64,000 bases of DNA from Longimicrobiales bacterium (GTDB lineage: Bacteria > Gemmatimonadota > Gemmatimonadetes > Longimicrobiales > Gaopeijiaceae), in contig OZ220732.1 in the NCBI GenBank assembly GCA_965116905.1, positions 1,472,001 to 1,536,000 of the forward strand, read 5' to 3'. Below the pieces are notes generated by a model. The model was not told the DNA's origin and did no database searches. It was given only the letters and a program-made list of their open reading frames with translations. Position numbers and translations under genes: made by a program. Positions 27,560 to 54,712 of this stretch are shown here, one piece after another. Each line of letters begins with the position of its first letter. The first letter of the stretch is position 1.

Positions 27560-28453
27560 TCAGGGCGTAACCGTGACGCGCACGTAGGCGTTCGTCCAGC
27601 AGCACTGGTCGCCGCCGGTGCTGTCGTTCGCATCCCAGTTGTCGATGCGCGCGCGCAGCACGTACTCGCCGGGCTCGCTGAACACGACGCTCGCCGTGGC
27701 CTCGCCGGTGCCGCCTTCGACCGTCACCCGCCTGGGATCGACCGTGATCTGCCCGGCGGGCCCCTGATGCTTGAACCAGCTCAGCCCGACGTCGACGACC
27801 TCGTTCACCATGTCGTCGGGTGCGCGGACGGATACCTCCTCGGTCCAGAGCGTCAGCGTGAGCGGCTCGCCCACCGTGGCCGTGAGCGGCTCCCCCCACA
27901 CGCCCTGGATGTGCTGGCCCGCCGGCCCGTCGGCGGTGAAGCGCACGACCGGCGGCACCGATCCCATGGCCCGCGGCCCGTAATCCAGCTGCAGCGCCGG
28001 GATGCCGACGCGCCCCGGGGTCGCGTTCGTCCAGCCATTCGCCGTGATCGTCCACACCACCGCCTGCTCCCCGTCCTCGTACGAAGCCGGGACTGTGACG
28101 TGGAAGACGCCCCGGTCCCGTCGCGGACGCACCGGAAAGTGGGTGGGCTGCATGCCGTCGAACTCGGCCGGCTCGATGAAGTTGTCGGGACCGATCGGGA
28201 TGTCGAGGACCTGCTCGCTGTTCAGGTTGAAGAACCCGAACGAGAGCGTGAAGGTGCCGTCGTCGTTGCGGTACCAGCCCTCGAAGAAGGGGGCCACCTC
28301 GTCCCCTTTGGTCAGGATCGGGGCGAGCGGCAGCCGCTGTCGCTCCTGGGCGTGCAGGGACACGCCCGCCGCCGCGTACACAGCGAGCAGGAGGAGCGTC
28401 CCCGGCAGGATCCTCGCCGCGGCGACGGTCCGCGCCACAAATGGGCTGCGCAT
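27560..28453 (-). CDS. Exported hypothetical protein, partner of the heme-copper monooxygenase-like protein (copy 1)
   Basis: Signal peptide LHA-Q; VAPFFEGWYRNDDGTFTLSFGFFNLN, QPTHF, FSEPGEYVLRA, C-terminal QCCWTN; paralog of 53599-54712; start overlaps the upstream stop. Confidence 0.85.
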   Translation of the reverse strand: MRSPFVARTVAAARILPGTLLLLAVYAAAGVSLHAQERQRLPLAPILTKGDEVAPFFEGWYRNDDGTFTLSFGFFNLNSEQVLDIPIGPDNFIEPAEFDGMQPTHFPVRPRRDRGVFHVTVPASYEDGEQAVVWTITANGWTNATPGRVGIPALQLDYGPRAMGSVPPVVRFTADGPAGQHIQGVWGEPLTATVGEPLTLTLWTEEVSVRAPDDMVNEVVDVGLSWFKHQGPAGQITVDPRRVTVEGGTGEATASVVFSEPGEYVLRARIDNWDANDSTGGDQCCWTNAYVRVTVTP

Positions 28454-29862
28454 CAGCGGCTGTCGGTGCCGTCGTTGCCGTTGCCGCTGCTGTTGTCTTC
28501 GCTGTCGGTCGCGAGCTTGGCCTCACGGTCTTCGACCAGCCTCTGGTAGCCGTCCTCGGTCAGGTGGGTGACGGCGATCCACGCGTGCGACATCTCGTCC
28601 ATCGTGCGCGAACCGCGCGCGTACCAGATCTCCGGATCCGGCGTGAGCTCGTTATCGGCGGTGTTGTCGTACCACCCGGTCAGCACGACAACCGTCCCCG
28701 CCGGGAGGAGCGGCGCGACGTCGTCTTCGTAGATGTAGCTGTGGTGCCAGCGCGCGTCGAAGTCCGTGACCATGCTGATCAGCTCGACATCGCCGTCGGG
28801 ATACACGGCCTGTATGGACATCGCGTGGAGGTGCACGTGGCCGTGCGGCTGGTAGCTGTCGATCCGCACCGGGTGGTCCCAGCGGTGGAAGCCCTGGGTC
28901 ATCGCGGTCCCTCCGGGGGCTAGGGCGATGTCGCCGCGGAGCGGGTACAGGCGCAGGTCCTGCCGGAACTCCGGCTCGTAGCCCTCCTCGTGGAACCAGA
29001 TCCCGAGCTCGAGCTGGTCGCCGGGCACGTCGTATCCCATGGGATAGTAGTGGGCGTCCCACTCGATCATGTCGGTCGTCTTGAGGAGTCGCCCGGCGTC
29101 GCGGGGCACGATTTCGCCGACCTTCCCCATGGCGTACTCGGACAGGCTCTGGATGCGGCGGTACTCGCCCTCTTCGTTGAGCCGCAGGAGCCGCGGGATG
29201 GCGTGGTGGACGACCTGGCGGCCTGCCGGGAAGGAGGGACGCGTCTCGGCCGCCATCACCCACCGGTCCTCGTCCAGCCCCGTCGGCACGCGCGGCCGCC
29301 ACCAGGTGTCGCCGCCCTCGGCAGACACGTCGAAGGGCTTCGACTTGATGACGTGATCGGGCGGGCCGAGGATGTCCTCGAGTTGCCACATCTGCTTGTT
29401 CGGCCACTCGATCGGCGGCGGCAAATCGGCGGGGTCGCCCTCGGGCGCTCCGGCGTCCACCCACGCCACGAAGGTCTCGATGTCCTCTTCGCTCAGCCGC
29501 CAGTCATCCTTGATGTCCTGGATGCCGACCCCGGTGTCGAGGTGGTACGGGGGCATGAGGCGCTTCGACACGAGGTTCCGGGCACGCGACGCGTAACGGC
29601 GGACCTCCTGGTACGTCATGAGCGACATCGGACCCACGGAAGCAGGCCGGTGGCAGATCTCGCAGTTGGCCTGGAGGATGGGGGCGACGTCCCTGGCATA
29701 GGTCACGTCGGCCTCGTGGGCGCCGCCGTTACTGGCGGTCTGTTGGGCGGCGACGGGCGACGCGACGACCAGCAAAACAACGGTCGCCAGCGCGGCGACG
29801 GACGGTGCCGACACGGCCAATCGGTTCGACAGATGCTCCGAGCGGACAGGCAGCGTGCGCAT
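28453..29862 (-). CDS. Exported cytochrome c plus copper type II (PHM/DBH-like) monooxygenase fusion (copy 1)
   Basis: GGAGG RBS; signal peptide; CEICH, MPPY; VVHHA, DAHYY, PHGH, DEM candidate copper ligands. Confidence 0.85.
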   Translation of the reverse strand: MRTLPVRSEHLSNRLAVSAPSVAALATVVLLVVASPVAAQQTASNGGAHEADVTYARDVAPILQANCEICHRPASVGPMSLMTYQEVRRYASRARNLVSKRLMPPYHLDTGVGIQDIKDDWRLSEEDIETFVAWVDAGAPEGDPADLPPPIEWPNKQMWQLEDILGPPDHVIKSKPFDVSAEGGDTWWRPRVPTGLDEDRWVMAAETRPSFPAGRQVVHHAIPRLLRLNEEGEYRRIQSLSEYAMGKVGEIVPRDAGRLLKTTDMIEWDAHYYPMGYDVPGDQLELGIWFHEEGYEPEFRQDLRLYPLRGDIALAPGGTAMTQGFHRWDHPVRIDSYQPHGHVHLHAMSIQAVYPDGDVELISMVTDFDARWHHSYIYEDDVAPLLPAGTVVVLTGWYDNTADNELTPDPEIWYARGSRTMDEMSHAWIAVTHLTEDGYQRLVEDREAKLATDSEDNSSGNGNDGTDSR

Positions 29863-50821: not shown

Positions 50822-51805
50822 TCAAGGGCCCTGGAGCCGCGCGATCTCCGCTTCCGCCGCGATGTAGCCGAAGCCCGCCCAGCCGGAGCCCTCCACAATG
50901 CGTCGGAACATCTCCTCGGCCTGCTCGGGGCGCCCGCTGTAGAGGTGCCACGCCGCGACCCCGTACGCGATCGCCACGCCGGCGGGGTCCTCGCTCTCCG
51001 GGTCCCACAGTTCATCCGCCTCGATCTCACCCCGGTACATCAGGAGAAGGCGGTGGTAGCTCGTGTTCTCGATCACGTCCATGTCGGCCGTGATTCGCTC
51101 CAGGACGGCCGCGGCTTCCTCGTCGCGGCCCAGACGCCGCAGCGCCATGTACCACCAGTGCGAGATCGCCACGAGCTGGTCGGGGTTCGTGGTCACGGCG
51201 AAGTAGGCCTCGTACGACTGCAACGCGGCGTCGAAGTCGCCCTTCAGGTAGTGGGCGAGTGCGAGGTGGTAGTGGATGTTCGACTGCAGCGTGCTCGTGG
51301 GGATCCCGCGCTCGTTCGGCTGGCCGTCGGGCTCCACCTCGTCCGGCTGGCCCGCGACGAGCCCGGCGGCGTGGGACAGGTCCTCGATGGCCCGGTCGAA
51401 CTCGCGGACGCTGATCCAGCGGTGCCCGCGGTGGCGGTACATGCGCGCGTCGCCGGGGTGCTTGCCGACTCCCTCCGAGAACACCTCGATCGCCTCGCGG
51501 TACCGGCCCGTGTACCCGATCCGCCGGCCCAGCCAGATGATCGCGTCCGCGTCGTCCGGATCGGACTCGTAGTCTGCGCGGGCGGCGTCCACATCCTCAG
51601 CCTGGCGGGCCGCGACCTCGGGTGGGGCCTGTGGGGGATACAGCGGCTCGCCCAGCAGCGAAATGGCCTCCGCGCCTTCGGGGAGCGCCGGACCGTCGTC
51701 CGCGGCATCGGCCGGGGGCTCGGCTGAAGGATCGTCGGCTGGGCCGCATGCGGCGGACAGCGGAACGACGGACAGCAGGACAGCGATGAGGAGCGTGCGG
51801 CGCAT
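50822..51805 (-). CDS. TPR lipoprotein
   Basis: MRRTLLIAVLLSVVPLSAAC lipobox; IWLGRR, YRHRGHR, YHLALAHYLKGDF TPR units. Confidence 0.87.
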   Translation of the reverse strand: MRRTLLIAVLLSVVPLSAACGPADDPSAEPPADAADDGPALPEGAEAISLLGEPLYPPQAPPEVAARQAEDVDAARADYESDPDDADAIIWLGRRIGYTGRYREAIEVFSEGVGKHPGDARMYRHRGHRWISVREFDRAIEDLSHAAGLVAGQPDEVEPDGQPNERGIPTSTLQSNIHYHLALAHYLKGDFDAALQSYEAYFAVTTNPDQLVAISHWWYMALRRLGRDEEAAAVLERITADMDVIENTSYHRLLLMYRGEIEADELWDPESEDPAGVAIAYGVAAWHLYSGRPEQAEEMFRRIVEGSGWAGFGYIAAEAEIARLQGP

Positions 51806-51995
51806 ACGAACGTCCAGGCTTGTGATGGCTGGTGATGGAACGGGGACAAGGTTGGGTCGCGGGTCCGCCGGGTCAAACGGACGGAGCCGCCACCGGGCCG
51901 CCACCGGGCTGCCGCTGTTTTGCGCAGCGCCGATGAGCCGAATAGACTTTGGCCGTGGCCCACCGAATTGGCCCCAACGGAAAGAAGCGTGCCGC

Positions 51996-53576
51996 ATGTC
52001 GATCGCAAAGCTGTCCGGAACCTCCCTGATGGCGGGGGTGCTCACGTTGCCGGGAGCCGCTGCCGCGGCCCTGGTCGCCACAAGCCTGGCGTCCCCCCCT
52101 CTCGCCGCGCAGTCTGACGTGTCCGCCCGGCGCGACGCGGCCCCGCAGGAAGCCCCGCCCGCCCAGGAGGACGTCACCTTCACCCGCGACATCGCGCCCA
52201 TCCTCCAGCGCGCCTGCGTGCGCTGTCACCGTGACGACGGCGTGGCCCCCATGTCGCTCGTCGCTTACGACGAGGTGAAGCCCTACGCAAGCCGGATCGC
52301 GCGCCGCACGCAGATCCGCGACCGCGCAGGCGCGATGCCCCCCTGGTACGTCGAGAAGGACATCGGCATCCAGCACTTCAAGGACGACATGTCCCTCCAG
52401 GACCACGAGATCGCCGCGCTGCAGCAGTGGTGGCGCGCCGGAACGCCCGAAGGCGACCCCGCGGATCTTCCTCCCCCGCTCGAGTTCGACGACGAAGTGG
52501 TGTGGGTGGCGGGCGAGCCCGACCTGATCGTGAAGCTGCCCGAGGTGCTGGTCGAAGACGACGTCCCCGACTGGTGGGGCGACATCGAACCGATCCCGAC
52601 CGGCCTCACCGAAGACCGCTACGTCAAGTCCGTCGAGATCCGCGAGGTCAACGACGTCGGCCGCAACCCCGACGGCGGACACGAGGGACGCCACACCGTC
52701 GGCGGCCGCTTCGTCGTGCACCACATGATCTGGAGCACCCGCGTCCCCGCCGAGGAAGCGGGCGACGGCCCCAGAAGCACGAGCTGGCCGGTCCACGAGG
52801 TCGGCCGCGAGCCCGACATCTTCGACGACGACGCGGGCCGCCTCCTGCGAGCGGGTTCGTCCGTCGTCTCCAACTCGCTGCACCTGCACTCCAACGGCCG
52901 CGACACGCGTGCCCACCTCGAAATCGGCTTCCGCTTCCACCCGCCCGACTACGAGCCGAAATACCGGCGGGCCTTCTTCGGCCTGGGCAACGGCAGCGAC
53001 ATCGACATCCGCGCCGGTGAGGCGGGCCAGGAACTGCACGCCTACCAGGTCCTCAACCAGCACACCAAGATCGTCACTTTCGAACCCCACCTGCACGCCC
53101 CCGGCATGCGCATGTGCCTCGAGGCCATCTGGGGCTTCAACGTCGAGACGATCAACTGCGTCGGCTACGATCACAACTGGGTGCGCGGCTACACCTACGC
53201 CCAGGACCACCAGCCGCTGCTCCCGCGCGGAACGGTCCTGCACATCGTCGGCTACATGGACACTTCGGAAGCGAACCGCAACGTGCCCGACACCCGCAAC
53301 TGGCAGGGCTCCGGCAATCGCTCCGTCGCCAACATGTTCATCGACCTCGGCATGCGCGTCGCCCTCACCGACGAGCAGTTCGTCGAGGAGATGGCGCTCC
53401 GCCGCGAACGCCTCGCACTCGGTCCCAACGACCACGTGATCGGGTGTCCGCTCTGCATGGTCATCCCCGAGAACGGGAATCCCCGCTACTATGCCGCAGA
53501 TGGGGATGGGGCCGGAGGCCAGAGCGACCAGACCGGCAATTCGACGGGTGCGAACCGTGGCCGCGGGAATCGGTAG
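51996..53576 (+). CDS. Exported cytochrome c plus copper type II (PHM/DBH-like) monooxygenase fusion (copy 2)
   Basis: Signal peptide LAA-Q; VTFTRDIAPILQRACVRCH, MPPW; VVHHM, LHLH, PHLH, ANM candidate ligands; C-terminal CPLC. Confidence 0.85.
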   Translation: MSIAKLSGTSLMAGVLTLPGAAAAALVATSLASPPLAAQSDVSARRDAAPQEAPPAQEDVTFTRDIAPILQRACVRCHRDDGVAPMSLVAYDEVKPYASRIARRTQIRDRAGAMPPWYVEKDIGIQHFKDDMSLQDHEIAALQQWWRAGTPEGDPADLPPPLEFDDEVVWVAGEPDLIVKLPEVLVEDDVPDWWGDIEPIPTGLTEDRYVKSVEIREVNDVGRNPDGGHEGRHTVGGRFVVHHMIWSTRVPAEEAGDGPRSTSWPVHEVGREPDIFDDDAGRLLRAGSSVVSNSLHLHSNGRDTRAHLEIGFRFHPPDYEPKYRRAFFGLGNGSDIDIRAGEAGQELHAYQVLNQHTKIVTFEPHLHAPGMRMCLEAIWGFNVETINCVGYDHNWVRGYTYAQDHQPLLPRGTVLHIVGYMDTSEANRNVPDTRNWQGSGNRSVANMFIDLGMRVALTDEQFVEEMALRRERLALGPNDHVIGCPLCMVIPENGNPRYYAADGDGAGGQSDQTGNSTGANRGRGNR

Positions 53577-53598
53577 CGGCGTGGGAGGAGGGTTCGCG

Positions 53599-54712
53599 GT
53601 GACAGCGCCGCCTGGCTGGCGGGACCGGACGCCGATTCGAGCGCGGGGCCAGGTGGCCGCGGTGACCGTTCCGTTCGCGATCTCCCTGCTCGTTGCCTTC
53701 GCGATCCCCCCCCGAAGCTGCCGCCCAGACCTATCAGCGCGGCCAGAACGTGGCGCCCGCCTTCGAGGGCTGGGAGCGCAACGAGGACGGCTCGTTCAGC
53801 TTCCTCTTCGGCTACATGAACCGGAACTGGCTCGAAGAGGTCGACGTGCCGGTCGGGGAGCACAACGCGTTCTCGCCCGGCCCGGCGGACCGGGGACAGC
53901 CCACGCACTTCCTGCCGCGCCGCAACCGCTTCGTGTTCAAGGTCCGCGTGCCCGCCGACTGGGGCGACAGGGAACTGGTGTGGACGCTCACGAGCAACGG
54001 CGTCACCGAGCGCGCCTACGCGACCCTGCGGCCCGACTACGTGGTCGACAACGTCGTGATCATGTCCGAGACGGGCGCCCTGGGAGCCGGGTCGAGCAAC
54101 GCGCAGATGCGGGCGAACCAGCCTCCGACGATCACGCTCGAGGGACCGGAAGCGCGCCAGGCCACCGTGGGAGTCCCGCTCGGCATCACGGTGCTCGTGG
54201 AGGACGACGGCCTGCTGAGATCTCGCCGCCGACCTCCGCCCCCGCCCCCGGAGACTCCCGAGGACTCCGCGCGCGCCGACTCGATCTGGAACGCGCCGCC
54301 GACCTTCAGCCGCAGACAGCTCACCCCTCCGTCCCGGATCACCGTGCAGAAGGCCAACGGCCTGTTCATGTCGTGGTTCCTGTACCGGGGCGACGGGGCC
54401 GAAGACGACATCGAGGCCGGCGAGAGCCCCGCGGCCGGCGAGCGCCCCGCGGCTGGCCAGCGCCCCGCGGCCGGCGAGAGCCCCGTGACCTTCGATCCGC
54501 CCCAGATCAAGGTGTGGGAGGACACGCGCGCCGGGGCCAACTCGCCCTGGGCCCCGCTGTGGGTGCCGCCCGAACTGCCTGAAGACGGCCGCTGGACCGT
54601 AAACGTAACCTTCGACCAGCCGGGGACCTACCTGCTGCGCGGGCGTGCGGACGACGGCGGCCTGTTCGCGGACGTGGAGGTCACGGTGACGGTGAGGCCG
54701 GTGGCGAGTTGA
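53599..54712 (+). pseudogene. Exported partner protein (copy 2), +1 frameshift in a C8 tract within the signal-peptide region
   Basis: GGAGGAGG RBS then GTG 53599 gives ...FAISLLVAFAIPP; after C8 (53706-53713) the next frame reads EAAAQTYQRGQNVAPAFEGWERNEDGSFSFLFGYMN...QPTHF...FDQPGTYLLRG. Confidence 0.8.
54416..54484 (+). repeat. Nearly four 18-bp in-frame tandem repeats (AGESPA/AGERPA/AGQRPA/AGESP)
   Basis: GCCGGCGAGAGCCCCGCG-like units inside the partner gene. Confidence 0.85.

Follow-up and report, generated by a model that had tools for sequence, protein, structure and literature searches.

The closest described relatives of the genes analyzed here are the copper type II monooxygenases: the dicopper enzymes peptidylglycine alpha-hydroxylating monooxygenase (PHM) and dopamine beta-hydroxylase (DBH), with which animals produce peptide hormones and noradrenaline, together with tyramine beta-monooxygenase; the N-terminal domain of DBH is a DOMON domain. 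PHM (PDB 1phm, 1sdw and 6ala) is built of two beta-sandwich domains and has two copper sites, CuH and CuM, and PMC6123673 names His242, His244 and Met314 as its CuM ligands. According to PMC12164859, both the electron route to copper and the closing-up of the two coppers in catalysis are still debated for these enzymes. Here we describe a bacterial relative encoded in a 64,000-nucleotide stretch of the genome of a Longimicrobiales bacterium (contig OZ220732.1, positions 1,472,001 to 1,536,000 of the forward strand), which we call the window. The window contains two copies of a module consisting of an enzyme gene and a partner gene, and copy 2, judging from its sequence and model, specifies an exported, heme-c-fused dicopper enzyme of the PHM/DBH fold with a dedicated partner; the enzyme is likely a monooxygenase. 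A first-pass annotation had proposed that the complex requires a dithiol, which lies either on a C-terminal CxxC of the enzyme or on an adjacent cysteine pair (CC) of the partner. Our analysis leans towards another reading, in which copy 2 is an ancient paralogue and three cysteine pairs have had separate histories, rather than one dithiol having moved between chains.

We sorted the family by these pairs. Clade A has the partner CC only, clade B has a hairpin pair and CxxC in the enzyme with no CC, and clade C has the hairpin pair only, with no CC. The features of the two copies, in window coordinates, are as follows.

51996..53576, + strand: enzyme gene of copy 2 (P0001, clade B), 526 aa; from sequence, model and fold searches
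51996..52109, + strand: predicted Sec signal peptide, residues 1-38, with LAA before Q39; by-eye reading of the sequence
52215..52229, + strand: heme c attachment site C74-x-x-C77-H78; from sequence and a weak Pfam Cytochrome_CBB3 match, below the cut-off
52335..52337, + strand: M114, likely distal heme ligand; invariant in 348/348 aligned enzymes, with its role taken from class I cytochromes c
52719..52724, + strand: H242-H243, CuH ligands (PHM H107/H108 positions); PHM alignment, invariant
52881..52883, + strand: H296, third CuH ligand; PHM alignment, invariant
53088..53096, + strand: H365-L-H367, CuM ligands (PHM H242/H244 positions); PHM alignment, invariant
53115..53159, + strand: hairpin pair C374 (MCLEA) and C388 (INCVG) on a CuM-domain beta-hairpin; model, alignment and covariation
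53328..53336, + strand: A445-N446-M447, with the CuM methionine and the acid of DEM replaced; sequence and PHM alignment
53445..53456, + strand: C484-P-L-C487 (CxxC), C-terminal, only in clade B and tied to N/Q/M at 446; alignments and tree
53581..54712, + strand: partner gene of copy 2, exported two-domain beta-sandwich, cysteine-free, likely GTG start at 53581 and mature part from 53726; fold taken from the copy-1 partner model
53706..53713, + strand: C8 run with one base too many, which puts the partner signal peptide out of frame; from relatives and run contigs
54650..54664, + strand: DDGGL turn replacing the CC-bearing loop (about 10-15 residues) of clade A partners; alignment and model
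28453..29862, - strand: copy-1 enzyme gene, for comparison (clade A; DEM at 28591-28599; without hairpin pair and without CxxC); from sequence
27560..28453, - strand: copy-1 partner gene, for comparison; the adjacent CC (27599-27604) is in the tip of its final hairpin, and the gene shares one base with the enzyme stop codon

The copy-2 enzyme runs from the signal peptide through a class I cytochrome c domain and a PHM/DBH-fold dicopper core to a C-terminal helix and the CxxC tail. Its model has a mean pLDDT (predicted local distance difference test) of 88.6, and Foldseek matched this model to DBH (1e-9) and PHM (2e-8). By VIA, DBH scored Z 16.7 (root-mean-square deviation 4.2, 296 aligned) and PHM Z 16.6 (3.5, 244 aligned), and the next unrelated structure scored 7.1. 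The top 26 structural entries were all DBH or PHM (Z 13.1-16.7), so the core is assigned to the tandem beta-sandwich type. A search of the PDB with the single sequence P0001 gave no match; profiles of the family matched DBH at first (E 0.0016), and then PHM (E 5e-8) and DBH (E 7e-8). In the profile alignment with PHM, the HH, H and HxH motifs, which comprise five histidine ligands, are aligned, and PHM DEM is aligned with the family motif containing M447 in a short second stretch that is non-significant alone. Thus, the His-His...His pattern of CuH is represented by H242, H243 and H296, and the His-x-His...Met pattern of CuM by H365, H367 and M447, with N at the place of the acid. The cytochrome domain shows the CxxCH near the N-terminus, M114, and model helices at 6-17, 35-49 and 80-91, and the host genome has cytochrome c assembly genes (two PF01578 genes). 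The six copper ligands and M114 are invariant in all 348 full-length enzymes. A stand-alone enzyme from a genome of a gammaproteobacterial order (L383) has Glu at the position of the CuM methionine, which may be an alignment slip.

The likeness to PHM extends over both beta-sandwich domains (Z 15-16.6) and both copper sites, although the identity is only 12-13%. The bacterial enzyme differs from PHM in that it is exported with an N-terminal class I cytochrome c, has a dedicated partner gene and no lyase domain, shows ANM for DEM, and carries cysteine pairs of its own; it also lacks the one cysteine that PHM has after the CuM methionine. DBH (PDB 4zel) is the best structural match and, like the bacterial enzyme, has an additional domain at its N-terminus and a back-folding extension at its C-terminus. 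However, the N-terminus of the bacterial enzyme is occupied by the cytochrome c, the tails of the two proteins have no sequence link, and the partner subunit is without a counterpart in DBH. The Pfam models Cu2_monooxygen and Cu2_monoox_C left P0001 unmatched. Among 85 relatives, 22 and 3 were matched weakly (best E values 1e-6 and 5e-5), the 22 by PF03712. Stand-alone bacterial proteins that combine a cytochrome c with a PHM-like part (weak PF03712/PF01082 matches) share the heme motif and the six ligands, and form the outgroup of our trees. They have no partner gene beside them, neither the hairpin pair nor CxxC, and none of W436, R442 and R469 of the paired enzymes. Our literature search found no description of this bacterial family, with most subscription papers outside its scope, and no text on PHM Glu313; a term search in PMC6529398 returned no mention of bacteria.

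We then compared the copies within the genome. As the first-pass annotation had reported, copies 1 and 2 share the gene order enzyme then partner, and all the motifs that it listed are present at their coordinates in the copy-2 enzyme and partner, the enzyme (P0001) carrying TFTRDIAPILQRACVRCH and GTPEGDPADLPPP. Over 476 columns, the enzymes share 33% identity (E 9e-67, far beyond chance), and the partners share 37% over 172 aa (E 1e-21), with APxFEGWxRNxDG, QPTHF and FxxPGxYxLR in common. Its account of the differences was likewise borne out: NM replaces EM in copy 2, the enzyme has the extra cysteines of MCLEA and INCVG and the C-terminal CPLC, and the partner is without the CCWTN of copy 1. 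The only cysteines of the copy-1 enzyme are the two of the heme site, and its partner ends in QCCWTN; the mature copy-2 partner is cysteine-free. A third copy outside the window (contig C1 of the host genome, about 3844388-3846666) has the reversed order, with the partner first, and carries DEM and a partner CC; it adjoins a membrane transporter-like gene. Gene order was considered as a clade marker and rejected, as both orders occur within clade A.

Next, we surveyed natural enzyme-partner pairs. From 372 loci we obtained 420 enzyme frames and 348 unique full-length enzymes; 54 that lacked a full-length partner next to them within the fetched DNA and eight lying downstream of the partner of another enzyme were dropped, which left 286 pairs. 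These pairs (batch 1) comprised 138 of clade A, 115 of B, 30 of C, two with both hairpin pair and CC, and one with none. Two further batches were fetched with clade-C and exception queries and are not representative: batch 2 gave 26 pairs from 38 enzymes (A 10, B 6, C 10), and batch 3 gave 18 pairs from 21 enzymes (A 6, C 9, hairpin and CC 2, none 1). Enzyme CxxC and partner CC were never found together (0/330 pairs), so the anti-correlation expected by the first-pass annotation is real. However, 51 of the 330 pairs had neither, and all of these kept the six copper ligands. By contrast, exactly one of the hairpin pair and the partner CC was present in 324/330 pairs. Thus, the notion of a dithiol placed on different chains is not supported for the CxxC, and survives in a revised form that sets C374/C388 against the partner CC.

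C374 and C388 were both present or both absent in 348/348 enzymes, and CxxC was accompanied by N, Q or M at position 446 in 130/130 enzymes and by D or E in 0/218. Among P0001 and its 120 best homologues of 5759 matches, C374, C388, C484, C487, N446 and M447 were all invariant (121/121). Another cysteine pair of the family, 209/281, was also all-or-none (7/7), and such pairs gained elsewhere in the family show the behaviour of structural disulfides. In clade B, further changes near the active site concern H267, E268, R271, A368 and G390. Three clade-B enzymes (L242, L246 and L259) have an adjacent CC of their own at 263-264, immediately preceding the HEVG motif, which lies close to the active site.

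To place these changes in order, we used trees of 140 and 48 representatives from which the trait columns and the tail had been removed. The stand-alone enzymes fell outside, clade A stood apart, and clade B (support 99) was nested in the CC-less group, with several clade-C lineages branching before it. A single clade C was rejected (approximately unbiased test, p-AU 9e-7), under a motif-defined constraint that was set after viewing the first tree. The hairpin-bearing enzymes were also rejected as a single clade (p-AU 2e-4), which indicates that the hairpin pair changed more than once. The numbers of changes on the tree were one for CxxC, one for the acid at 446, one for the partner CC and three for the hairpin pair. 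CxxC and the acid at 446 changed on the same branch, and CxxC and the partner CC on different branches. The lineages with neither CxxC nor CC imply that CxxC did not replace CC, and the anti-correlation amounts to one event, with one independent contrast for CxxC versus CC.

We also investigated where the hairpin pair lies. In the model, C374 and C388 are on the two strands of one CuM-domain beta-hairpin, and we infer that they are one residue off direct register unless a bulge is present. Covariation within the enzyme (585 sequences, effective depth 174) gave V119-V389 (z 12.8), F128-N387 (z 11.6) and H127-D404 (z 8.7), and the model has isolated beta-bridges at V119 and F128, in agreement with this. 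C388 is thus situated between N387 and V389, the two strongest cytochrome contacts, and the covariation and the beta-bridges together place it at the docking site of the cytochrome on the CuM domain, near V119, five residues past the heme methionine. The covariation of the tail was weak (z 5-6, effective depth 62) and involved residues 168, 178-179 and 201-205, which, going by the PHM fold, we place at the distal end of the CuH domain. CPLC itself lies in coil and is followed by 39 largely low-complexity residues. A CxxC oxidoreductase of the thioredoxin, glutaredoxin or DsbA type was considered for CPLC and rejected, given the coil, the 39-residue tail and the lack of space for such a fold.

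Based on these results, we propose the following working of the complex. The cytochrome domain would attach to the CuM domain at its edge strand and hand on electrons from periplasmic donors to copper, where O2 would be activated and the substrate hydroxylated. C374-C388 would most likely be a cross-strand disulfide that staples the hairpin where the heme domain docks. The CPLC tail would be a later addition confined to clade B, gained along with a reshaped active site in which N/Q replaces D/E next to the CuM methionine. The tail probably forms a metal knuckle, or a small loop closed by a disulfide, that packs against the outer face of the CuH domain, and may reflect a change in substrate or tuning. 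The partner CC would likely be a vicinal disulfide at a loop tip, serving ligand or subunit contact, and the entire loop would have been lost in one deletion, in the common ancestor of clades B and C. The host genome has two DsbD-type membrane domains and one VKOR, so that formation and reduction of disulfides are both available. Several points weigh against this proposal of separate histories. An incidental staple does not need the alternation of hairpin pair and CC, nor the persistence of the hairpin pair without loss over 23.4 substitutions per site of CC-less lineage; a redox role would likewise be compatible with a pair located at the heme/CuM junction; the placement of the CPLC tail rests on weak covariation; and one protein among 117 further clade-C-like proteins (P0421) has N at 446 without CxxC.

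A first alternative, which we regard as rather unlikely, is that a single cysteine pair is required at the heme-to-CuM junction of the complex, provided by the CC loop of the partner in clade A or by C374/C388 in clades B and C. An ancestor with both would have given rise to lineages that lost one or the other, and the pair may gate or relay electrons or help to load copper. The exactly-one pattern of the 324 pairs, the location of C388 between the two strongest cytochrome contacts, and the keeping of CC whenever the partner loop is present all agree with this idea. In addition, the both-state occurs near the base of clade A and again in a second genome (L335, L339, L443 and L453). If the ancestor had both, then the hairpin pair was lost twice with CC present. 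It was retained throughout the 23.4 substitutions per site of CC-less lineage, as was CC throughout 13.3 substitutions per site without the hairpin pair, a pattern that fits redundancy. However, only about three events are involved, so a sign test cannot reach significance, and the both-state is represented by two orthologue sets in two genomes that are close relatives of each other and have tens of paralogues, in which shuffling is plausible. Two pairs have neither (L353 and L469), the stand-alone enzymes lack both, and inter-chain covariation (286 paired rows, effective depth 135) revealed no residue pair that stood out clearly (best z 6.8) and gave no signal for the CC loop. Its best signals formed a loose patch between D207, D318 and N429 of the enzyme and V108, V149 and Q230 of the partner (copy-1 numbering), which may be phylogenetic in origin. 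With equal reserve, a fuller version of this history may be drawn, in which the pair moved between the subunits through both-state intermediates and clade B then rebuilt the second sphere of CuM (E to N/Q) together with the CxxC tail.

The two pairs with neither, at L353:1621-3603 and L469, lie near the base of the paired family; they have no hairpin pair and no CxxC, and their partner loop reads EEHH for QCCW. This loop is possibly a His-based metal site that replaces the cysteines, as far as its residues suggest.

A further alternative, which we consider improbable, is that the CPLC tail is a working redox or metal site of clade B, either for Cu(I) loading or as a Zn/Fe knuckle, and acts alone or as a four-cysteine site with C374/C388. 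The tail would then compensate for the loss of the acid next to the CuM methionine. The coincidence of CxxC and acid loss in 130/130 enzymes and on the same branch speaks for this, as do the invariance in clade B of both cysteines and the preceding Gly, with the two middle residues variable, and the extra conserved histidines of this clade (H267 and H393). However, the coincidence is a single event on the tree and is broken by P0421, C374/C388 occurs without CxxC in clade C and is therefore complete alone, and the weak covariation places the tail at the presumed far end of the CuH domain. Finally, the obligatory dithiol located on either CxxC or CC, as first proposed, is very improbable: although the two are never found together and the three copies of the host genome all fit, the 51 pairs with neither, the changes on different branches and the paraphyly of clade C, under which an ancestral swap would require CxxC to be lost several times later and the acid to be recovered on each occasion, speak against it.

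For the partner, the copy-1 model (pLDDT 91.6) consists entirely of beta structure in two domains, and CC occupies the tip of the last hairpin. The second domain gave only generic Ig/PapD/PKD-like fold matches (best Z 7.5), and neither the partner profile search nor the fold searches yielded a specific solved relative. Pfam contained no family that matched the partner, and the ESM Atlas returned unnamed clusters only; in NCBIfam, the enzymes and partner 1 were without a match, and partner 2 had a single weak one (E 0.006). We examined the loop in the 132 of 150 representative partners that were up to 700 aa in length: 84 had CC, 30 were loop-less, one had a single Cys and 17 were unclassified. 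The entire loop of about 10-15 residues is absent from the alignment of CC-less partners, and where the loop is present, the rest of it is free to vary. The clade A CC, strictly kept at the loop tip of an exported protein, resembles vicinal disulfide proteins, with the bond here putative. PMC12102755 gives ligand binding, structure stabilisation and switching, including in mobile loops, as roles of vicinal disulfides. The lone Cys found in 18 of 40 clade-B partners was considered as a disulfide mate and rejected, as the position is Ala, Val or Gly elsewhere.

The partner signal peptide was in frame in 27/27 relatives checked, and the copy-2 partner is broken at the C8 run. Contigs from three of eight sequencing runs (X2, X4 and X7), which stem from related strains, were one base shorter at this run, and those of the other five did not bridge the site. 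The extra base is therefore likely an assembly error, or a strain slip. Sponge metagenomes were among the sequencing runs sharing most words with the locus.

In-frame fusions of partner and enzyme occur in eight proteins (P0128, P0129, P0131-P0135 and P0138) and in P0247, and enzyme and partner diverge together, as seen in their mirrored trees. The fusions and the mirrored trees argue for a complex of enzyme and partner. In two other proteins (P0126 and P0127), a CC-type partner is joined in one chain to an NHL propeller, a fold that also makes up the lyase half of animal PAM. The first domain of the partner is also found in tandem repeats of five to seven copies in large surface proteins without the enzyme (P0181, P0257 and similar), and its sequence context suggests a stand-alone binding module.

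We also analyzed the neighbours and the distribution of the family. A fixed third gene of the unit was looked for and rejected, because the neighbours vary. The neighbour family seen most often is that of the PQQ (pyrroloquinoline quinone) dehydrogenases, at 59 of the scanned loci, many of them related, although none flanks copy 2. Elsewhere in the window, a gene resembling those of PQQ-type dehydrogenases, next to a gene for a two-heme cytochrome c (291-2791, identified by eye), is a possible periplasmic electron source. Divergent from copy 2 is a gene for a TPR-containing exported protein-like product (window 50822-51820), whose position is kept in 12 loci of close relatives; the close relatives are Gemmatimonadota (Longimicrobiales). 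Neighbour families without a Pfam match recur, as at L340:558-2084 (30 loci), L234:4834-6201 (14 loci) and L360:1-1875 (12 loci), and these could be genuine genes or opposite-strand frames. A metagenome scan with a clade-C query gave four loci. In a sample of 400 gammaproteobacterial genomes, one of them unscored, a partner match was found in the centre genome only. Two genomes of the class of G301, a Vicinamibacterales record, show large expansions: G462 has 64 enzyme and 49 partner matches in 5.9 Mb, and G315 has 43 and 31 in 3.9 Mb. These expansions (loci L274-L371) include all three clades, often as tandem arrays, and a few of the enzyme matches are split pieces. Another genome, G304, has 35 matches, nearly all stand-alone.

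The family is now sorted into three clades with clear markers, the correlation of CxxC with CC is removed, and C374/C388 is singled out. A bacterial family that is soluble, carries its own heme, keeps its copper sites intact and varies naturally beside the CuM methionine would allow the electron route and the closing-up of the coppers to be tested by heme spectroscopy. If the exchange between C374/C388 and the partner CC were true, the family would supply natural variants for the electron route to copper in PHM/DBH enzymes, with more than 60 copies in single genomes. In addition, the tens of copies per genome in some Acidobacteriota point to a large unexplored set of putative periplasmic oxygenases.

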